DNA of 12,467 bases from a virus (Duplodnaviria; Heunggongvirae; Uroviricota; Caudoviricetes): positions 1-12,467 of IMG/VR virus record IMGVR_UViG_2778261382_000004; one strand, written 5' to 3'. Positions 301 through 9,965 of this stretch are shown here, one piece after another. How positions within the stretch are numbered: position 1 is the first letter of the stretch; every line of letters starts with the position of its first letter. Under the pieces are notes generated by a model. It searched no databases, was not told where the DNA came from, and saw only the letters and a list, made by a program, of their open reading frames with translations. A program made the position numbers and the translations under genes.

Positions 301-801
301 TCACTCATCATCTTCTGTTTCGTACTCCACATCAGAAAGCCTGACCTCAAGCTCCAAGGACGTCGTGAAGCCGCTATTATTCAGAAAATGTGTCACCTTA
401 GTGATTGTCCAGTCCTGCTCGTCTATGACGCGCTTAAAGCCTGACACTTTAACCGGTGTTTCCGTGTAAATATCTGCCCGACCGGTAGCCAGGCTGATGG
501 AGAACTCCGCCACACCCCGTTGCAGTTTATCCCACTTCGCCTGAGCGGCGCGCATGGCCTGCGCTTTCGTGGCATATACCGTGGTCAGGGCAAAAACGTT
601 GTCAGCCTCACCGGCCATGTATTCACCTTCGCGCGCTTCCGGTACTTTTGGCGCTTTCTTCTGCGTGACCGGTTTCGCTTTCGGGTGCTCCAGTGCGCGC
701 AGGTGTTTTTCTTTCTTTTTGCGTTTCAGTTTTACCTTCTGCTTTTGCGGCTTCGGGTCTTTGGTGTGTATCCTGAAATCCCGCCAGATTGGCGCGACGT
801 T
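301..801 (-). pseudogene. D: Tail gene D, C-terminal fragment only (N-terminal roughly 60 percent missing)
   Basis: Reading frame open from 801 down to the stop at 301-303, ending ...FKRVIDEQDWTITKVTHFLNNSGFTTSLELEVRLSDVEYETEDDE. It sits immediately upstream of ogr in the same orientation, as D does in P2. The frame is closed by a stop at 802-804 and there is no plausible start or upstream D sequence. Identification as gpD is from context plus sequence memory. Confidence 0.55.
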
Positions 802-2053
802 TTATTTTTCCCGCGAGGCGCTGCTGCGCGCCCTGAAAACCGGTCATAACCAGATTTTTCTGTCGGCCAGTAAAACGCAGGCGTATGTGTTCCGCGAATA
901 CATCATCGCCTTTGCCCGTCTGGTTGACGTTGACCTGACCGGTGACCCGATTGTCCTGGGCAATAACGGCGCAAAACTGATTTTTCTCGGCACCAACTCC
1001 AACACCGCACAGAGCCATAACGGCGACCTGTACGTCGACGAGATTTTCTGGATCCCGAATTTTCAGGTACTGCGTAAGGTGGCATCAGGTATGGCCTCAC
1101 AGAGTCACCTGCGCTCGACCTATTTCTCCACCCCGTCCACGCTGGCGCACGACGCCTACCCGTTCTGGTCGGGTGAACTGTTCAACCGGGGACGCGCCAG
1201 CGCCGCCGAACGTGTGGAAATCGACGTCAGTCATAACGCCCTTGCCAGCGGGCTTCTCTGTGCGGACGGCCAGTGGCGGCAGATTGTCACCATTGAGGAC
1301 GCCCTGAAAGGCGGCTGCACACTGTTCGACATTGAGCAGCTCAAACGTGAAAACAGCGCCGACGATTTTAAAAACCTGTTCATGTGTGAATTTGTTGACG
1401 ACAAGGCGTCGGTGTTCCCGTTCGAGGAGCTGCAACGCTGCATGGTCGACACGCTGGAAGAATGGGAAGACTATGCGCCGTTTGCCGCCAATCCGTTCGG
1501 CTCACGTCCGGTATGGATTGGTTACGACCCGTCACACCGTGGCGACAGCGCCGGATGCGTGGTGCTGGCACCGCCGGTGGTGGCCGGTGGCAAATTCAGA
1601 ATACTTGAGCGTCACCAGTGGAAAGGCATGGACTTTGCCACCCAGGCGGAATCCATCCGCAAACTCACCGAAAAATACAACGTCGAATACATCGGCATTG
1701 ATGCCACCGGCCTTGGTGTCGGCGTGTTCCAGCTCGTGCGCTCGTTCTATCCTGCCGCGCGCGATATCCGCTACACGCCGGAAATGAAAACCGCAATGGT
1801 GCTCAAGGCCAAAGACGTTATCCGCCGTGGCTGTCTGGAATATGACGTCAGCGCCACCGACATCACCAGCTCGTTTATGGCTATCCGCAAGACCATGACC
1901 AGCAGCGGACGCAGCGCCACCTATGAGGCCAGTCGCAGCGAGGAAGCCAGCCACGCCGACCTCGCCTGGGCGACCATGCACGCCCTGTTAAATGAGCCAC
2001 TCACCGCCGGTATCAGCACCCCGCTGACATCCACCATTCTGGAGTTTTACTGA
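779..2053 (+). pseudogene. P: Terminase large (ATPase/nuclease) subunit gpP, N-terminally truncated
   Basis: Protein-like sequence begins near codon 76 of ORF 554..2053 with a Walker-A-like SRQIGATFYFSREALL, followed by LYVDEIFWIP and a long terminase-like C-terminal part. The first 75 codons of the ORF (554-778) are Cys/Phe-rich nonsense that is antisense to the D fragment. The stop overlaps the Q start (TGATG at 2051-2055), as in a P-Q operon. Confidence 0.65.
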
Positions 2054-3087
2054 TGAGCAAGAAAGAAGGGAAAACACCGCAGCCAGCGGCAAAAACAATC
2101 ACCGCCAGCGCCCCGAAAATGGAAGCATTCACCTTTGGCGAGCCGGTGCCGGTACTCGACCGCCGTGACATTCTGGATTACGTCGAATGCATCAGTAACG
2201 GCAGATGGTATGAGCCGCCGGTCAGCTTTACCGGTCTGGCAAAAAGCCTGCGTGCTGCCGTGCATCACAGCTCACCGATTTACGTCAAACGCAATATTCT
2301 GGCCTCAACATTTATCCCGCATCCGTGGCTTTCGCAACAGGATTTCAGCCGCTTTGTGCTGGATTTTCTGGTGTTCGGTAATGCGTTTCTGGAAAAGCGT
2401 TACAGCACCACCGGTAAGGTCATCAGACTGGAAACCTCACCGGCAAAATATACCCGCCGTGGTGTGGAAGAGGATGTTTACTGGTGGGTGCCGTCCTTCA
2501 ACGAGCCGACACCTTTCACGCCCGGTTCCGTGTTTCACCTGCTGGAGCCGGATATTAATCAGGAGCTGTACGGCCTGCCGGAATATCTCAGCGCCCTTAA
2601 CTCTGCCTGGCTGAATGAGTCGGCCACGCTGTTCCGCCGCAAGTATTACGAAAACGGCGCACATGCCGGATACATCATGTACGTTACCGATGCCGTGCAG
2701 GATCGCAACGATATCGAAATGCTTCGCGAAAACATGGTGAAGTCGAAAGGCCGCAACAACTTTAAAAACCTGTTTCTCTATGCCCCGCAGGGGAAAGCCG
2801 ACGGCATTAAAATTATCCCGCTCAGTGAAGTGGCGACGAAGGACGATTTTTTTAATATCAAAAAAGCCAGCGCCGCTGACCTGCTGGACGCACACCGCAT
2901 CCCCTTTCAGTTGATGGGTGGCAAGCCGGAGAACGTCGGGTCACTGGGCGATATTGAGAAAGTGGCAAAGGTCTTTGTCCGCAATGAGCTAATCCCGTTA
3001 CAGGACAGGATTCGGGAAATAAACGGCTGGCTCGGCCAGGAGGTCATCCGCTTTAAAAACTACTCACTGGACACTGACAACGGCTGA
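2053..3087 (+). CDS. Q: Portal protein gpQ
   Basis: 344-aa ORF, the same length as P2 gpQ, directly downstream of and overlapping the terminase gene, followed by a terminator and the cos site. The sequence MSKKEGKTPQPAAKT...GKPENVGSLGDIEKVAKVFVRNELIPLQDRIREINGWLGQ is recognised as P2-type portal. Confidence 0.85.
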   Translation: MSKKEGKTPQPAAKTITASAPKMEAFTFGEPVPVLDRRDILDYVECISNGRWYEPPVSFTGLAKSLRAAVHHSSPIYVKRNILASTFIPHPWLSQQDFSRFVLDFLVFGNAFLEKRYSTTGKVIRLETSPAKYTRRGVEEDVYWWVPSFNEPTPFTPGSVFHLLEPDINQELYGLPEYLSALNSAWLNESATLFRRKYYENGAHAGYIMYVTDAVQDRNDIEMLRENMVKSKGRNNFKNLFLYAPQGKADGIKIIPLSEVATKDDFFNIKKASAADLLDAHRIPFQLMGGKPENVGSLGDIEKVAKVFVRNELIPLQDRIREINGWLGQEVIRFKNYSLDTDNG

Positions 3088-3256: not shown

Positions 3257-3275
3257 GTGCTTTCCCCGCCTCGCC
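3257..3275. other. cos site (19-nt cohesive-end sequence of P2/186/P4 type)
   Basis: gtgctttccccgcctcgcc at 3257-3275 is the reverse complement of GGCGAGGCGGGGAAAGCAC, which I recall as the P2-family 19-nt cohesive end. It lies about 170 bp beyond the Q stop, where cos is expected. Confidence 0.65.
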
Positions 3276-3311
3276 CGCCCGCTTCATGGGGCGGTTTTAA
3301 TGCAGTTGCAC

Positions 3312-3333
3312 AGCCATGTCAAAGCCATGTCAA
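3312..3333. repeat. Perfect tandem duplication of an 11-bp unit AGCCATGTCAA next to cos
   Basis: AGCCATGTCAA at 3312-3322 is repeated exactly at 3323-3333, 37 bp from the cos 19-mer. Confidence 0.8.
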
Positions 3334-3518
3334 CACTAGCAGTATGTAAAAAGAGCAGATATAAGAAACAAATGCAGTTTCATGCAAAAAGCGACACACA
3401 TCATGTCATGAAACAAAGCCGCTAATGAACACTTGCTTTGGTTATCTTAAGGTTTTATCTTCAGCCTAACCTATTGATTGCATGAAACTAAAATGAACTC
3501 TCAGCAAGGAACGACTAT

Positions 3519-5477
3519 ATGTCAGATTTCGAAATTAAAATTGATTTGAATGTGCTAAATCACCTAGGGATGAGTCTCTATTCCAATACTCCCGCGGTAC
3601 TAACTGAGATTATATCAAATGCATGGGATGCAGATGCTCAAAATGTAGAAATTACACTTGATGTTGAGAAAGGAGAGGTCATCATTAAAGATGATGGTCA
3701 TGGCATGTCTAAAGATGACATTATTAATAAGTTCCTAAAAGTCGGTTATGCTCGCAGGGAACATGGAAGAGCCAAAAGCGATCATCTAAAACGTCAAGTT
3801 ATGGGCAGAAAAGGTATTGGTAAGCTTGCCATGTTTTCACTTGCCAATAAAATCCAAGTTTATTCGTACAAAAAGGGGGAACAGCCTCAGGCCTTTGAGG
3901 TAGATGTCAAAGATTTACAGCAAAGTATCAAAGAATCAAAAAACTATATTGCTGACTCCCTTGAAATACCCGAAAATCTTGCTTACGGCACTACAATTAA
4001 ATTATTTGAACTAAAAAAAGCCATTGATAGGACTCAAACTTACCTCAGAAAGCGAATAGCTCGTCGATTTAGCATTATTGGCCCCAACCATAACTTTACA
4101 GTTAAAATTAATGGGACCGATATTACACCGGCAGATAGAGATTTCCTTTCAGATCTCGAGTTCATTTGGGAATTTGGCGAATCCGACCCTGAAAGGATAA
4201 AATCCTGCACAAACATCACACAAAAAAACATATTACCAAATACTATTACCTTTGAAGGAAAAGATGTAAAAGTTAGTGGGTACATTGGCAGTGTAGTTAA
4301 GCCATCACAGTTAAAGAAAGACCCTGAAATATCTAACAACAGCATTACTGTAATCTCTCACGGACGTGTTTTTGAGGAGGACATATTATTAGAATTTGGA
4401 AGTGCTAAAGTATTCACCAATTATCTGGTCGGTGAAATAGTCGCCGATTTTCTAGATGATAACGAAAAGCCTGATATGGCAACATCTTCTCGTCAAAAAC
4501 TACAACAGAATGATCCAAGATACCCTGTACTTAAAGGTTTTCTGGAAAGAACGCTACAACTAATCGATAAAGATTGGGATAAATGGAGACGCGAAAAAGG
4601 AGTAAATGAAGTTAAAAGCAATACTCCAATAGTAAGTGAATGGCTGAATTCTCTCAAAAAACATGAGAGAGAAAGTGCCGAAAAGTTAATTGGACGAGTA
4701 AACACATTCCGTTTTTCTGGTAATGAGGAAGAACAAAAAGCAGCAAGAAAAACCGTATTAAAAAATACGGTATTAGCCTTTGAAAGACTTAGAATTCAAG
4801 ACAACCTTGATGCATTAGATAAAATAAGCAACCTTCAATCAGAAAATTTTAAAGATGTATTTGCATCTGTCAATGACATTGAAGCAAGCATGTTTTATGA
4901 AATTACTTCGCAACGCCTTAAAGTAATTGAAAAATTCCAAAAAATAACTGATGAAAATCAGCTTGAAAGAGCTGTACAAATGTATTTATATGATCATTTA
5001 TGGTTATTGGATCCTTCATGGGAAAGAGTCACAGGCACATCTGTTATGGAGCAAACATTGACCAAGGAACTAAAACAGATAAACCCTGATGCTGCTAGCG
5101 GTGCTCGTATTGATATCGCTTTCAAAACCGTTTCTGGCAAGCATGTAATTATTGAGATGAAACGACCTAAAGTGCACCCAGATATAATGAACCTAGTCGC
5201 ACAAGGTAATAAATATGTACAGGCAACGACACAATGGTTCTCCAATAACCCTAAAAATTGCCCAGGTGGAAATATACCGCATATAGAAGTAATATTCCTG
5301 GTTGGCTCTGGATATTTACAAGAGAACCAACACTTTATAAATATGCAATTACTTTCTATCAATGGAAAAATATTGACATATAATGACCTAATCGTGCAAT
5401 CAAAACAAGCCTATGCTGAATATCAAGACAAAAAGAATGATGCAGCTAGAATTATGAAAATAGTTGAGGGAATCTAA
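3519..5477 (+). CDS. GHKL (Bergerat-fold, HATPase_c_3-like) ATPase with a C-terminal PD-(D/E)xK-like nuclease motif; candidate restriction/effector component
   Basis: N-terminal GHKL motifs: E..SNAWDA (nt 3606-3632), DDGHGM (nt 3690-3704), GRKGIGKLA (nt 3804-3830). C-terminal ...GARIDIAFKTVSGKHVIIEMKRPK... has D (nt 5112-5114) then E-x-K (nt 5154-5162) with hydrophobic flanks, as in PD-(D/E)xK nucleases. AAGGA lies 8 nt upstream of the ATG. The gene is AT-rich relative to the prophage backbone. Confidence 0.7.
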   Translation: MSDFEIKIDLNVLNHLGMSLYSNTPAVLTEIISNAWDADAQNVEITLDVEKGEVIIKDDGHGMSKDDIINKFLKVGYARREHGRAKSDHLKRQVMGRKGIGKLAMFSLANKIQVYSYKKGEQPQAFEVDVKDLQQSIKESKNYIADSLEIPENLAYGTTIKLFELKKAIDRTQTYLRKRIARRFSIIGPNHNFTVKINGTDITPADRDFLSDLEFIWEFGESDPERIKSCTNITQKNILPNTITFEGKDVKVSGYIGSVVKPSQLKKDPEISNNSITVISHGRVFEEDILLEFGSAKVFTNYLVGEIVADFLDDNEKPDMATSSRQKLQQNDPRYPVLKGFLERTLQLIDKDWDKWRREKGVNEVKSNTPIVSEWLNSLKKHERESAEKLIGRVNTFRFSGNEEEQKAARKTVLKNTVLAFERLRIQDNLDALDKISNLQSENFKDVFASVNDIEASMFYEITSQRLKVIEKFQKITDENQLERAVQMYLYDHLWLLDPSWERVTGTSVMEQTLTKELKQINPDAASGARIDIAFKTVSGKHVIIEMKRPKVHPDIMNLVAQGNKYVQATTQWFSNNPKNCPGGNIPHIEVIFLVGSGYLQENQHFINMQLLSINGKILTYNDLIVQSKQAYAEYQDKKNDAARIMKIVEGI

Positions 5478-5482
5478 TTATA

Positions 5483-5506
5483 CCCCCCTGTTTTTTGACA
5501 GGGGGG
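5483..5506. terminator. GC-rich hairpin between convergent genes, probable bidirectional terminator
   Basis: CCCCCCTGT (5483-5491) / ACAGGGGGG (5498-5506) form a perfect 9-bp stem with loop TTTTTG, inside the 41-bp gap between the two convergent stop codons (5475-5477 and 5519-5521). There is no clean U-tract, so efficiency is uncertain. Confidence 0.45.
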
Positions 5507-5518
5507 ATGACATAAGTT

Positions 5519-6568
5519 TTAAATATTCATTTCTGACAAATGTTTTAAAATAGTTTCACCTACGACCTCACCAAGCCTAACAGGAACAGCATTACCTATT
5601 AAACGCGCAACTGTTCTCATTTCAATTTTTACATCATCAGGCCAAAACTCATACTTTTCTGGGAATGACTGTAATAGCGCAGCCTCTCTTAAACTTAATG
5701 CTCTATTTTGGACAGGGTGCCCAAAGCGTCCATTCCCATATCCAATACATTGAGTTGTAATTGTCGGTCCAAGTTTATCCCAACACATTCTCCCATATAC
5801 AGCAGTATATGTAGAACCACTTTCTTTTGTATGACATTTTGCTCTTAGCTCTTCTGGCCAATCACGCCATGTTCCACCAGGTTTTGATGCCATTATTCTT
5901 TTTATATTAATATCAGATAATGATGCAGAGCGATGTAGTTTATCTCCAGCGTGAACAGCACCGGCACTAATTTCAGGAAGATTACCGATTATATCTCGCA
6001 CCGTTTTATAATCATTCTTCTCATGAGTTGGTGGAATTATTTCTATTTCTCCATATTTTGATGCCAATAACACTAATCTTGAACGACTTTGTGCCATTCC
6101 ATAGTCTGGACAAAACACCACCCCATACCAAACAAAATAGCCATCATTTTTAAGAGACTTAATGAAGTCCTTAAAAACCTTATGATTCACCACTCGGGGA
6201 ACGTTTTCCATTGTAATAATATCTGGCTTTGCAAATTTAATTTGCTTAGCAAAGCTATAAAGCAAAGACCATCTTTTATCTTTTGAACGTACTACCCCTA
6301 ATTTAGCACTATTGGTATAGCTTGAAAAAGGTTGGCATGGGGCACAACCAGCCAAAACTCGAACCTTCGCTCCTTCGAAATATTTAACTAATTCGCCGTC
6401 CTCAATGTCTGTAACACTTTTCTGGACAAAGAGTGATTTATTATTTGTCTCATAGGCAAATCGACAGGCTGCATCTATATCATAACCTGCAACTACATTA
6501 AGCCCCGACTTCTGAAGACCGTGAGTCAAGCCACCCGCGCCACAGAATAAATCAACAACCTTAATCAA
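5519..6568 (-). CDS. DNA (cytosine-5)-methyltransferase
   Basis: Canonical m5C MTase motifs in order: I DLFCGAGG, IV GCAPCQPFS (catalytic Cys codon at 6335-6337), VI ENV, VIII QSRSRL, IX/X RFGHP...RALSLREAALLQSFP...IGNAVP. Start chosen at TTG 6566-6568, preceded by a strong SD AGAAGGAGG (6575-6583) with a 6-nt spacer. The tabulated ORF begins further upstream at TTG 6668-6670 without an SD. Confidence 0.85.
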   Translation of the reverse strand: MIKVVDLFCGAGGLTHGLQKSGLNVVAGYDIDAACRFAYETNNKSLFVQKSVTDIEDGELVKYFEGAKVRVLAGCAPCQPFSSYTNSAKLGVVRSKDKRWSLLYSFAKQIKFAKPDIITMENVPRVVNHKVFKDFIKSLKNDGYFVWYGVVFCPDYGMAQSRSRLVLLASKYGEIEIIPPTHEKNDYKTVRDIIGNLPEISAGAVHAGDKLHRSASLSDINIKRIMASKPGGTWRDWPEELRAKCHTKESGSTYTAVYGRMCWDKLGPTITTQCIGYGNGRFGHPVQNRALSLREAALLQSFPEKYEFWPDDVKIEMRTVARLIGNAVPVRLGEVVGETILKHLSEMNI

Positions 6569-6624
6569 GATAAACCTCCTTCTAATGCTGTGGGGATTGT
6601 AGCATTGTTCTTTCTCATCATCGA

Positions 6625-6655
6625 TGTTTACTTGATGCTTGATTTGTGAATACAA
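6625..6655. promoter_or_regulatory. 11-bp inverted repeat in the MTase leader; candidate operator
   Basis: ATGCTTGATTT (6625-6635) and AAATCAAGCAT (6645-6655) with a 9-bp spacer. It lies between a TTGACA hexamer (minus strand, 6670-6665) and the MTase SD. No U-tract follows, so it is unlikely to be an intrinsic terminator for A. Confidence 0.4.
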
Positions 6656-6679
6656 AATCAAGCATGTCAATCATTATTG

Positions 6680-8953
6680 TTAGTTTGTTTCAAATCCCGC
6701 CCAACCATCAGAAATCGGATATGAAAACGTTTTCCCATCATAATTTACGGTCGCGCCACGCGCCAGCGCCTCAAGCTCCCATCGCTGCGGCCTGATACCG
6801 TTCTGAGCAAGGTCAACGCGGATACGGGTAATTTGCATTCGTTCCGACCGGGCCAGTCTGGCCGATGGTGCAATTTCATGTGGTTTTAACGAGCTTCCGT
6901 TTCTTTGCTGACGATTTGGCGTTCTCCGACCGTGTTTTAATGCACCTCTGAGCGCCCTCACGACCTCCGGGTCACTCCATTCGATAACACTGTCATCAAC
7001 CAGATTAAGCACTGCTGCGGCGTGCTCAGAAGGTGTGGGAGCCGGTAACGAAGTATCACCACCGGTGAGTTTTCCACAGTTATTGACAGGACTCCGAGGC
7101 GCGGCGATGCCGCTTTTTAAAGTCAAAGGCTCAACGACCGGCACTTTCGGAACAATGCGCCAGTCCGTCGTTCTGGTGATATGAATATGACGCGCGCCGA
7201 GATGCGGCGCGTAAATGCCGACCACTCTCTCGACTTCTTCCTCGTACTCGTTAACGTCATCCGACGGGCTACGGGCAACCCTGACAGTCTGGCAATCGCG
7301 CGGGACATTTGCCCCACCCTGCGCGCTGATATACAGCGCAAAATCACCACTGTCTGCGGCGGCGCGTGCAGCCTCGACGCGCTCGTCAAACTCATCAGCA
7401 ATGCTGACGCCGCGAGGCAATTTGCGTAGTTCACGGTAAGCCCCCATTGTCGGCAGGCCAACCGTTTTAAATTGCGGAATGCGCCACGTTGACGCCCATG
7501 CGGTAACAGCCGCGGCAGTATCTTTCAGCGGTCTGCCGGTATCGTTATCGAGCTGCCCATCCAGTGCATAGCCGTCGATATTTTTTGAGATGTATTTCGC
7601 GATATACCCCGCAGCACCGCCCCGGTTAAGGTGTTTTTCCTGAAAACGGTTTCGCGCGGCTCCTCTTTCGTCGCCATCCTCTTTGAGCGCATAGCGACGC
7701 ATGATTTCGATAATCTGGTTACGCTGGCGTGGATGACAAAAAAGCATCATATGCCAGTGCGGCGTTCCGTCGTGGTGTGGCTCGACGACACGCAAACCGT
7801 AGACCTGTAAATCATTATCCTTGAATGCCGTGCGCATCAGACTCCAGATACGGCAGAGATAACGCTGCGCATCCTTTGGATTAAATGCCTCATCGTTCCA
7901 GCCGTGATTAAGCTGAACGGTTTTACTTTCGCCTTTTCCGACCTGACGTGTCGGGTGATACTTTGACGGCGCGGTCAGCGTGATAAACATCCCCAAATCA
8001 CCCTCTGCGGCGGCGTAACGCTCAATACCGGCAATGGTGTTCATCAGCTCCATCCGGCGAATTTCTGGATTAGAAATACTGCCCATCACCTTACTGATAA
8101 GGTCGATGCGCTCGCCGGTTTCCCTGTTTTCAAGGTCACACGATTTAAGAAATTCCAGATTTGCCTGGCGGCGCGCACGCACATCACGAATGGCATGTTT
8201 ACTGGCATAAGGAGAACGGTCTTTATTGACCTCCCCGACAGCAATCAGTAACGCCTCATGCCAGCGCATACGCTGGCCTTTAAGCTGACTAATCCACCAC
8301 TCATCGTTAAACAGACGGGCAATGGCAGAATATGCCTGCCTCGTGGTCATCTGTCCTTTACTGTATTTTTTCCAGTAGAGCGGGGAAATATTGAAAGCAC
8401 GTGCAGCGCCAGCAACATGACCATACAGGTGAGCCTGCGCCTCATCCGTAAACAGCGATTCTTTTTCACCATGCGCATCAACCCATGCATCGCAGAGTTC
8501 CTCATACATCATGAAAAGCTGCGATGAGATACGGGCGGCAAACTTTTTCAGCTCCTTGTCATTCATTCCAGGCAGGCGCGCATAGTGGTCACGCTCTGCC
8601 AGAAACAGCAACGACGCGTCGGTGTTCATTTCATGGCGCTGATTCACGCGCTCAATGCGCGGCCATAAACGACGCTGAAAAGTGGATGTGAGGAAATAAA
8701 ACCCGTGCACCGGGCTTTTATTGCGCCGGATGTAGTCATAGCGTGAAGTAAACAGCGAACGCAAAAAGTAAGGCAGGCGGTTAATCGTGGATAAAACACC
8801 TTGCACCTGACGCATCTCGTCACGTGTAAGGGGTCTTTCGCGCCCGACGGCCTCGCGTGGCGCGTTCCATGCATAAGCACCGGTAAACGTCTTACCGGTG
8901 CCTGCGGCAAATGCTGACGGAGGGACAAAACGCCCGGAGGCTTTAACGTCCAT
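6680..8953 (-). CDS. A: Replication initiation protein gpA (rolling-circle nicking enzyme)
   Basis: Large ORF of P2 gpA size and position at the end of the early operon. It contains an HUH-like metal-binding motif HWHMMLF and, about 50 residues downstream, an active-site-like YIAKYISK. Start set at the ATG at 8951-8953 (MDVKASGRF...); the tabulated ORF begins at an upstream TTG at 8995. Confidence 0.85.
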   Translation of the reverse strand: MDVKASGRFVPPSAFAAGTGKTFTGAYAWNAPREAVGRERPLTRDEMRQVQGVLSTINRLPYFLRSLFTSRYDYIRRNKSPVHGFYFLTSTFQRRLWPRIERVNQRHEMNTDASLLFLAERDHYARLPGMNDKELKKFAARISSQLFMMYEELCDAWVDAHGEKESLFTDEAQAHLYGHVAGAARAFNISPLYWKKYSKGQMTTRQAYSAIARLFNDEWWISQLKGQRMRWHEALLIAVGEVNKDRSPYASKHAIRDVRARRQANLEFLKSCDLENRETGERIDLISKVMGSISNPEIRRMELMNTIAGIERYAAAEGDLGMFITLTAPSKYHPTRQVGKGESKTVQLNHGWNDEAFNPKDAQRYLCRIWSLMRTAFKDNDLQVYGLRVVEPHHDGTPHWHMMLFCHPRQRNQIIEIMRRYALKEDGDERGAARNRFQEKHLNRGGAAGYIAKYISKNIDGYALDGQLDNDTGRPLKDTAAAVTAWASTWRIPQFKTVGLPTMGAYRELRKLPRGVSIADEFDERVEAARAAADSGDFALYISAQGGANVPRDCQTVRVARSPSDDVNEYEEEVERVVGIYAPHLGARHIHITRTTDWRIVPKVPVVEPLTLKSGIAAPRSPVNNCGKLTGGDTSLPAPTPSEHAAAVLNLVDDSVIEWSDPEVVRALRGALKHGRRTPNRQQRNGSSLKPHEIAPSARLARSERMQITRIRVDLAQNGIRPQRWELEALARGATVNYDGKTFSYPISDGWAGFETN

Positions 8954-9218
8954 GTGAGCCAAAAGCCTCTGAACAACGCTTGCTGAGTTGCTCAACCTGC
9001 GCGTTTAAATCAGCAAAAGATTTTGCGCTTCCGGTCAGAATATCGTGATGCATCAGGCCGGAAACGAGCTGGCTTAATTTCGGGTAATAACCAACCACCG
9101 CCAGCCATTCCTGACCGGCGTTTTTACCGCTTTCCGCTCTCTTTTTCTCGTGGAGAATAAACTGAAAGCTGTCACTGGTAACGACATAACGTTCGCCAAT
9201 TTCAATACGAATACTCAT
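8943..9218 (-). CDS. Hypothetical early protein (position of P2 orf83)
   Basis: 91-aa ORF between the zinc-finger gene and A, 4-nt overlap with the upstream gene (ATGA), same strand and compact spacing as the P2 early operon. Confidence 0.55.
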   Translation of the reverse strand: MSIRIEIGERYVVTSDSFQFILHEKKRAESGKNAGQEWLAVVGYYPKLSQLVSGLMHHDILTGSAKSFADLNAQVEQLSKRCSEAFGSHGR

Positions 9219-9439
9219 GCCGTTCTCCGGTAATGTTTGTTTTTTGCTTCAAAGACTGACTGACAGGAAACACAACGCGTGGCTGACGGATAAGCCGCAC
9301 GACGGGCAGCAGGTATTGGCGCGTCACACTCTTCGCAAACCAGCGCAGAAGCACCGCAATGTTTTACCCTTGCCGCGTTAATCTGACGCTCCAGTAATTC
9401 AGCCTGTTGTTCCTGAATAAAATCTACGTTGTCCGGCAT
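9215..9439 (-). CDS. TraR/DksA-type C4 zinc-finger protein (position of P2 orf82)
   Basis: 74-aa ORF with two Cys pairs, CEECDAPIPAARRAAYPSATRCVSCQ, typical of the TraR/DksA zinc-finger family. Confidence 0.65.
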   Translation of the reverse strand: MPDNVDFIQEQQAELLERQINAARVKHCGASALVCEECDAPIPAARRAAYPSATRCVSCQSVFEAKNKHYRRTA

Positions 9440-9744
9440 TACCAGCTCCTTTTGTCGTTAAGTTTTTTAAATTCATCAGCGCAATAGCTGGCAATTTCTG
9501 TTGTTAATTTTGTCAGTTCATCCACGGAGGAGATTTTCTTGTGAAATACAGCGCGTTTAACAAGTAAATTGACCACATCAGACAGGAGATTTAATTCGTT
9601 CTGATAAATCGCGATAACAGACTCAGTTATTTCGCGTTTTTCTTTATCAAGACCAAGTTGAATAAGAGATAAATCGCCATTTTTCATAACGGCGATTTTT
9701 AAGGCGTTATTCAGTAATACAACTGAACGAGAACAGGACATCAA
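9439..9744 (-). CDS. Hypothetical early protein (position of P2 orf81)
   Basis: 101-aa ORF in the early operon; its start overlaps the upstream stop and its stop overlaps the downstream start. Confidence 0.55.
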
Positions 9745-9965
9745 AGCACCTCCCCGCGAGACAATCCGATATTGTGAAATTTTTCCGACTCCTGACTGAG
9801 CAGCTCGACTATCTCCACGCGGGATAACTCCGCCTTTGTGATGTGGCGAATCATGGCGTCAAGATGAGAAGAAAAGCGCGTCGCTGCGTCGGCCTGTGCT
9901 TCGGTTCTGGCCTGTTGCAGCAGTAATGCGTATTTACCGCACTGATTTTCAGAAACTGTATGCAT
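9741..9965 (-). CDS. Hypothetical early protein (position of P2 orf80)
   Basis: 74-aa ORF immediately downstream of B in the early operon. Confidence 0.55.

Follow-up and report, generated by a model that had tools for sequence, protein, structure and literature searches.

The AT-rich insert between cos and gene A of this P2-like prophage very probably encodes a Type II restriction–modification system, a member of the HgiDII/BbrUII family that occupies the cos-proximal hotspot as accessory cargo. The window analysed is a stretch of 12,467 nucleotides from the Caudoviricetes record IMGVR_UViG_2778261382_000004, and the features of the insert and its left edge are collected in Table 1. The family, its architecture (2008), the hotspot (2022) and the exact gene pair are all already known; with a named family in a documented defence slot, the finding is therefore real but ordinary.

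Table 1. Features of the cos-to-gene-A region (positions are those of the window).
Feature	Position	Strand	Basis
P2 cos 19-mer (GGCGAGGCGGGGAAAGCAC), left edge of hotspot	3257-3275	-	Exact match
Variable AT-rich cargo, P2 cos-to-gene-A hotspot	3311-6692	.	Homology breakpoints and GC drop
Restriction endonuclease gene, 652 aa, BbrUII/HgiDII family (= paraMORC3)	3519-5477	+	NF050001, PADLOC REase_II, RefSeq product name
GHKL ATP-binding domain (aa 26-149)	3594-3965	+	Pfam HATPase_c_3, 2e-25
β-rich middle (S5/transducer-like) domain (~aa 170-330)	4026-4508	+	
Long helical linker (~aa 334-475)	4518-4943	+	AF2 secondary structure
C-terminal PD-(D/E)xK nuclease domain, predicted Shedu/DUF4263 type (aa 476-652)	4944-5474	+	
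Predicted catalytic residues D532; E546; K548	5112-5114; 5154-5156; 5160-5162	+	
GC-rich hairpin between the two convergent stop codons	5483-5506	.	10-bp stem, dG -21.6 kcal/mol
C5-cytosine DNA methyltransferase gene, 349 aa, TTG start after GGAGG	5519-6568	-	Pfam PF00145, PADLOC MTase_II, RefSeq coordinates
Perfect 11-bp inverted repeat (ATGCTTGATTT / AAATCAAGCAT, 9-nt spacer)	6635-6665	.	Between gene A stop codon and methyltransferase start

The P2-like backbone is interrupted by an insert of ~3.4 kb, flanked on one side by the P2 cos 19-mer (none of 200 shuffles contained a match) and on the other by gene A; portal and gpA are both recognised by Pfam. Homology to P2-like phages is lost at ~3310 (3328 for phage 9W) and found again from ~6692 (6653 for pro147), which delimits the variable segment, and the GC content is 0.31-0.40 over ~3400-6600 compared with 0.50-0.59 in the flanks. 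An earlier sequence-only reading had placed the insert at 3340-6670; the AT-rich insert stands, but the breakpoints give it slightly wider limits. The non-conserved segment thus lies between cos/gpQ and gpA in a backbone that is otherwise P2-like, the slot occupied by old/tin in P2 and by other cos-to-gpA cargo. This locus is an established hotspot of defence cargo with high turnover and hundreds of different occupants, several of which have been validated as anti-phage (Rousset et al., 2022; PMC9122126). Table S5A of that study includes the exact pair found here (WP_000598783 and WP_001279022), which was outside the systems tested by its authors. Together with cos, gpA and the breakpoints, this entry bears out the initial assignment of the cargo to the tin/old slot. 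The insert genes show no homology to old/tin, and their proposed mechanism is restriction–modification rather than old/tin exclusion. RefSeq agrees that there are exactly two genes; one GenBank phage record adds a 41-residue open reading frame at 3300-3425, for which no support was found. No controller (C) protein was found, this small frame being the sole extra candidate.

Against NCBIfam NF050001 ('BbrUII/HgiDII family restriction enzyme', cutoff 550 bits) the 652-residue protein scores 751.4 bits and aligns end to end, its residues 4-651 covering positions 1-658 of the 659 in the profile, a match at the equivalog level. PADLOC REase_II (PDLC03419) matches it at 2e-91, RefSeq already names the product as a BbrUII/HgiDII family restriction enzyme and a GenBank phage record labels the gene pair 'ParaMORC3 + Dcm'. 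The system had been regarded as uncharacterised in the sequence-only reading, a claim that fails in view of the full-length match above the cutoff; the locus is also catalogued and annotated. The accompanying statement that the pair had no characterised example and lay outside the classical layouts is likewise incorrect, as the founding enzymes, HgiDII from Herpetosiphon and BbrUII from Bifidobacterium breve UCC2003, are characterised Type II systems, reported to have GTCGAC as their SalI-type site and m5C methyltransferases as partners (PMC5867850; PMC5005818). Homology, through NF050001 and REase_II, places the protein in a characterised family, the outcome that the same reading had named as decisive against novelty.

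The architecture itself was described in 2008, when R.HgiDII was reported to combine an N-terminal GHKL domain with a distinctive C-terminal domain (PMC2441816), the same arrangement as in the 652-residue protein. The methyltransferase partners of HgiDII and BbrUII fall in the same orthologous group as the 349-residue protein. The systems differ in host and vehicle, the present copy residing in the hotspot of an Escherichia coli P2-like prophage. The protein also fits paraMORC3, a family with a GHKL and S5 module and a C-terminal restriction-endonuclease-fold domain bearing an E-D-ExK signature, which occurs in restriction–modification neighbourhoods with cytosine methylases and is in part standalone (Iyer, Abhiman and Aravind, 2008; PMC2292703). 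The paraMORC3 family was delimited computationally and has no defined biochemical activity; the member described here is linked to a methyltransferase.

Residue conservation was assessed over 31 homologues with identities down to 44%. The GHKL residues E30, N34, D37, D58, G60, G62, G96-G101 and G157-T158 are invariant, as are the nuclease residues E483/E511, D532 and E546-M-K548, which correspond to the paraMORC3 signature. The GHKL signature, the C-terminal PD-(D/E)xK-like motif and the open reading frame that had been noted from the letters are all confirmed, the last with identical RefSeq coordinates, and the proposal that the nuclease partner is a GHKL ATPase of the MORC type, ending in a PD-(D/E)xK domain, is supported. 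The linker comprises four helices in the AF2 model (residues 334-368, 370-394, 403-426 and 442-475), with low confidence around residues 446-461.

A sequence search of the PDB with the entire protein matched only Hsp90 and MutL, in their GHKL domains, a PDB search with a profile of the C-terminal domain gave nothing significant and a direct Pfam scan of the C-terminal 207 residues gave no match. A DUF4263/SduA-like match at the C-terminus surfaced with a slightly longer segment and with family members, the protein's own score against SduA_C (PF14082) being below the gathering threshold. The C-terminus was resolved only by fold comparison, in which the nuclease domain resembles solved SduA structures and agrees with the PD-(D/E)xK assignment, leading us to propose that the domain left unassigned in 2008 has a Shedu/DUF4263-type PD-(D/E)xK fold. 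If so, the C-terminal domain of R.HgiDII can be placed in the same way, which would tie a classical Type II family to Shedu.

This resemblance suggests a different reading, in which the 652-residue protein acts alone as an infection-sensing nuclease of Shedu type I-D (VcSduA-like), with the GHKL domain as its gate and no dependence on methylation, and the Dcm protein is an unrelated orphan that might, for example, shield P2 DNA from the restriction enzymes of other hosts. VcSduA, compared here by description only, has the same order of GHKL ATPase, middle domain and DUF4263 PD-(D/E)xK nuclease (PMC12137116; 10.1101/2023.08.10.552793). It works alone as a single-gene defence and depends on its ATPase residues as well as on those of its nuclease (PMC12137116), and Gu et al. 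placed GHKL–DUF4263 proteins in Shedu Type 1D. A Vibrio cholerae homologue, P0047 (61% identity), was considered as VcSduA and rejected, as it sits in a P2/K139-like prophage and not in VSP-II. Shedu systems are single-gene and methylation-independent, whereas the protein described here is genetically coupled to a cognate methyltransferase. It also scores at the equivalog level for the HgiDII/BbrUII restriction enzymes, and its sole PADLOC hits were two REase_II models and a weak MzaB match, with no Shedu model.

The coupling was surveyed in 80 homologous loci, drawn from a large number of bacterial and archaeal phyla, in which a methyltransferase was sought within 5 kb. An orthologous C5-methyltransferase is present in 66 and a divergent C5-methyltransferase in one more (~67/80). 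In 59 of the 66 the gene lies immediately upstream on the same strand, the same-strand gap in linked loci usually being less than 40 bp, and the orthologues adjoining nuclease homologues in these distant genomes share 45-58% identity. In four of the loci without a methyltransferase the contig stops short on the upstream side, while ~9 of the 80 have full flanks and lack the gene; methyltransferase-free relatives therefore exist, a point in favour of the Shedu-like reading. Among 5426 complete E. coli genomes, however, the same 30 carry both genes and none carries just one of them. Adjacency in most distant loci and in every E. coli carrier makes a methylation-independent Shedu nuclease beside an unrelated methyltransferase very unlikely, and the orphan methyltransferase without this partner, raised as an alternative at the outset, was not seen. 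The earlier proposal of a restriction–modification pair is instead sustained by the PADLOC REase_II and MTase_II assignments and by the conserved gene linkage.

The methyltransferase is encoded within a minus-strand open reading frame at 5519-6670, and its likely start is a TTG codon at 6568 behind a GGAGG ribosome-binding site, in agreement with RefSeq. Pfam DNA_methylase (PF00145) matches the protein at 1e-55 over positions 1-323 of 324 and PADLOC MTase_II matches it at 3e-88. The catalytic motif set is complete [FCGAGG (FxGxG), PCQ, ENV, QSRSR (QxRxR) and GNAVP], confirming the identification as a C5-cytosine methyltransferase made from the letters. Its target-recognition region (residues ~185-290) is as conserved as the catalytic core across 58 orthologues, as would be expected if they share a single specificity. 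GTCGAC is the reported recognition site of M.HgiDII and M.BbrUII (PMC5867850; PMC5005818). From family membership and the conservation of the target-recognition region, GTCGAC is most likely to be the site of the E. coli copy as well. No depletion of this site was detected in the window (two sites versus ~2.7-3.0 expected), nor was there a signal in the 21.6-kb locus (three versus ~5.4-6.6 expected); these counts are uninformative, since no avoidance is expected of a self-methylating element.

In the 30 E. coli genomes both genes are intact, at least 99.9% identical and free of pseudogene flags. This bears on the suggestion that only a decayed or silent remnant is present, with an inactive or unexpressed nuclease and a functional orphan methyltransferase left behind. 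BbrUII is one of three characterised restriction–modification systems that interfere with transformation in B. breve UCC2003, and the gain in transformation efficiency from M.BbrUII methylation was small beside that from the other two systems (10.1101/2023.09.16.557782), a hint that some family members restrict weakly. However, the nuclease gene described here is full length, retains all of the invariant ATPase and nuclease catalytic residues and has a plausible ribosome-binding site and start codon, so that a remnant is scarcely credible.

We therefore return to a functional Type II system, for which the following mechanism may be envisaged. The 349-residue methyltransferase would add a 5-methyl group to the cytosine of its target site, most likely GTCGAC, on host and prophage DNA. 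The 652-residue enzyme, a MORC/MutL-like GHKL ATPase and transducer joined by a helical linker to a Shedu-type nuclease, would probably act as a homodimer that closes via its ATP-binding N-termini. The closed dimer would then use D532, E546 and K548 to cut phage or plasmid DNA entering the cell at sites that lack methylation. Expression of the pair from the lysogen could thus exclude unmodified foreign DNA, with prophage stabilization by post-segregational killing as a possible side effect.

Type II restriction–modification systems are well known for post-segregational killing, and the main selected role of a true pair might conversely be that of an addiction module, in which methylation is diluted and prophage-free cells are killed, with defence secondary. 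The strict co-inheritance of both genes, intact and nearly identical in the 30 genomes, would suit such a role. Defence nevertheless fits better than stabilization in a high-turnover hotspot with validated anti-phage cargo, and the two roles are not mutually exclusive; stabilization as the principal function appears unlikely.

A more speculative and rather doubtful extension is that HgiDII-family enzymes in general are ATP-gated nucleases rather than plain Type IIP enzymes, in which a MORC-like clamp closes on DNA before a Shedu-type core cuts it. The classical Type II enzymes and the single-gene Shedu type I-D systems such as VcSduA might then represent methyltransferase-linked and methyltransferase-free branches of one machine. 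No demonstration of a contribution of the conserved ATPase to restriction was found in the accessible literature, and such a contribution is relevant to the way in which methylated DNA is read by MORC-type ATPases. Should the ATP-gated reading be true, the E. coli prophage copy would provide a tractable model for a GHKL/MORC ATPase acting on methylation-marked DNA.

The common layout of the family, with the methyltransferase upstream in tandem, is not that of the E. coli prophage pair, in which the two genes are convergent and 41 bp apart. The GC-rich hairpin shared by their 3' ends, which had already been noticed in the sequence-only reading, is more stable than all of 200 shuffles (z = -4.5) and is likely to be a bidirectional terminator; an intrinsic-terminator scan did not call it a clean terminator, as no T-run follows on either strand. 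At the other end of the methyltransferase gene, the perfect inverted repeat could serve as the terminator of gene A or as an operator.

On profile searches, the 652-residue protein encoded in the insert of this prophage is a BbrUII/HgiDII family restriction enzyme. NCBIfam NF050001, the equivalog model of that name, matches it end to end with 751 bits (cutoff 550 bits), the PADLOC Type II restriction enzyme model PDLC03419 matches it at 2e-91 and most genomes carrying the protein use the same product name in RefSeq. The neighbouring 349-residue protein is a complete C5-cytosine methyltransferase with every motif visible (PF00145, 1e-55; PADLOC MTase_II, 3e-88). These matches, together with conserved linkage of the two genes, bear out the sequence-only reading of the pair as restriction–modification cargo. 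Its description as an uncharacterised, non-classical system was wrong: the insert is a known, annotated Type II family in a described prophage hotspot, the P2 cos-to-gpA interval (Rousset et al., 2022; PMC9122126). Table S5A of that work lists the pair, but its table of tested systems does not contain it.

The architecture was described twice in 2008. Orlowski and Bujnicki recognized an N-terminal GHKL domain in R.HgiDII and gave the C-terminal domain no fold (PMC2441816), while Iyer, Abhiman and Aravind gave the name paraMORC3 to proteins in which GHKL and S5 are joined to a restriction-endonuclease fold (E-D-ExK) at the C terminus, and located them in restriction–modification neighbourhoods with cytosine methylases (PMC2292703). 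The same cargo is present at 99.9% identity in Escherichia phage PhiR44_1 (GenBank PV340563.1), with the genes labelled `ParaMORC3' and `Dcm protein'. M.HgiDII is reported as an experimentally characterized m5C methyltransferase with the site GTCGAC (PMC5867850), which is also the reported recognition site of M.BbrUII (PMC5005818), and BbrUII is among three characterized Type II systems that hamper transformation of B. breve UCC2003 (10.1101/2023.09.16.557782). The introduction of PMC5829577 calls M.BbrUII an N6-adenine methyltransferase, which conflicts with PMC5867850 and PMC5005818, where it is an m5C enzyme for GTCGAC, and is probably a mislabel.

Linkage was analysed in 80 loci, one genome per species, with nuclease homologues of 34–43% identity from many bacterial phyla and archaea. 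A methyltransferase orthologue, mostly 45–58% identical, lies within 5 kb in 66 of them; in 59 of these it is directly upstream on the same strand, usually with a gap of less than 40 bp, and in four the genes converge as they do here. One further locus (L032) has a divergent C5-methyltransferase, and the upstream side is cut by a contig end in four of the loci left without one. Of 5426 complete E. coli genomes, the same 30 carry both genes; every copy is full length with an identity of 99.9% or more, and no genome has only one of the two. An orphan methyltransferase, the outcome that would have spoken against a functional pair, is thus excluded. In 58 orthologues the target-recognition region is conserved to the same degree as the catalytic core, which argues for one common specificity.

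The GHKL signature of the nuclease is complete (Pfam HATPase_c_3, 2e-25), its four motifs being invariant across 31 homologues, as is the D532...E546-x-K548 motif. Structure prediction of the C-terminal segment, which the sequence-only reading had proposed as a check, gave a separately built model of residues 470–652 (pLDDT 77) that matches PD-(D/E)xK nucleases only; among these, SduA aligns over the most residues (149) and is the most similar in sequence (23% identity), and B. cereus Shedu scored 7.3–7.4. Pfam SduA_C (DUF4263) matches 22 of 23 C-terminal segments of the family; the segment encoded here has an E value of 0.0056, under the gathering score, which is reached by a 68%-identical Proteus homologue. 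The fold and SduA_C matches together identify the C-terminal domain of R.HgiDII, and of the present protein, as a predicted Shedu-type PD-(D/E)xK nuclease, a structural detail that is new here.

This kinship raises the alternative of a Shedu-like nuclease that acts independently of methylation beside an unrelated Dcm. VcSduA from V. cholerae has the same domain layout and functions as a single gene (PMC12137116), and some nuclease homologues lack a methyltransferase; such a reading is nevertheless unlikely here, given that linkage in operons is conserved, that the two genes co-occur without exception in E. coli and that the nuclease matches an equivalog model. Decay of the pair is also improbable, as neither the ORFs nor the motifs are disrupted. 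The best-supported mechanism is a Type II pair of a methyltransferase and a putative ATP-closed nuclease. The methyltransferase would mark the cytosine of (probably) GTCGAC in the DNA of host and prophage. Incoming DNA would be cut at unmethylated sites by the D532/E546/K548 centre of the nuclease, which is probably a homodimer that closes when ATP binds to its GHKL domains. Action as an addiction module is compatible with this restriction–modification reading. That the ATPase residues are strictly conserved, and that VcSduA no longer gives defence once it carries E27A (PMC12137116), suggests that the ATPase matters; its contribution in these enzymes, and their relation to the Shedu family, are where the remaining interest lies.

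Features of the prophage segment and its insert
Feature	Position	Strand	Remarks
Large terminase	554-2053	+	
Portal	2053-3087	+	
P2 cos 19-mer	3257-3275	-	Exact match
41-aa ORF, between cos and nuclease gene	3300-3425	+	`Hypothetical protein' in PV340563.1; absent from RefSeq annotation
652-aa nuclease gene	3519-5477	+	RefSeq coordinates identical
10-bp GC hairpin, between both stop codons	5483-5506		dG -21.6 kcal/mol, z = -4.5
349-aa methyltransferase gene	5519-6568	-	TTG start after GGAGG site; RefSeq coordinates identical
Perfect 11-bp inverted repeat ATGCTTGATTT / AAATCAAGCAT, 9-nt spacer	6635-6665		Directly past gene A stop codon
Gene A	6680-8995	-	
Integrase	11457 to window end	+	

The whole window belongs to a P2-like E. 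coli prophage and runs in reverse to the usual P2 map. Chromosomes such as NZ_CP042896 are 100% identical to it, and the ∼190 bp between the integrase end and cpxP in NZ_CP042896.1 (L001, 17288–18954) places the attachment site beside the cpxP-cpxRA locus. Homology to other P2-like phages ends at ∼3310 and restarts at ∼6692, thus defining a variable insert of 3.4 kb, with a GC content of 0.31–0.40 over ∼3400–6600 versus 0.50–0.59 outside. Every sequence feature first noted is present: the AT-rich insert with two convergent genes, the hairpin, the GHKL signature, the D...ExK motif and the methyltransferase. A domain search with the 41-residue ORF gave no match and no sign of a controller protein role. 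The inverted repeat has a TTGACA hexamer on its edge and lies ∼70 nt before the start of the methyltransferase gene. It may act as terminator of gene A or as operator for the methyltransferase; phage pro147 matches the window from 6653 onward, so part of the repeat may be backbone.

Several homologues occur in other settings. An `uncultured Cenarchaeum sp.' MAG (OY282369.1; L025, L030, L036, L052, L060) carries at least six copies of 37–38% identity, most without a recognizable C5-methyltransferase nearby and one beside a DDE transposase, suggesting either a lineage that proliferates without the methyltransferase or cargo of mobile elements. Two homologues without the usual methyltransferase lie beside a GmrSD_N protein (L037) and a PD-(D/E)xK (PDDEXK_1) protein (L077), and L032 is followed by a gene for an HNH protein. 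Such surroundings look more like defence islands than like simple restriction–modification pairs. A V. cholerae homologue (P0047, 61% identical; L083, GCA_026766275.1, ABJTBP010000026.1) immediately follows a gene for a CI-type repressor. The prophage that contains it, perhaps K139-like, encodes a P2-type replication protein A (Phage_GPA); both slot and prophage family differ from those of the window, and the contig ends within the P0047 gene. Within the window, a second, smaller GC dip (0.39 versus ∼0.45–0.53 nearby) at 9400–9800 lies in the early-gene region, amid small ORFs between gene A and cox.
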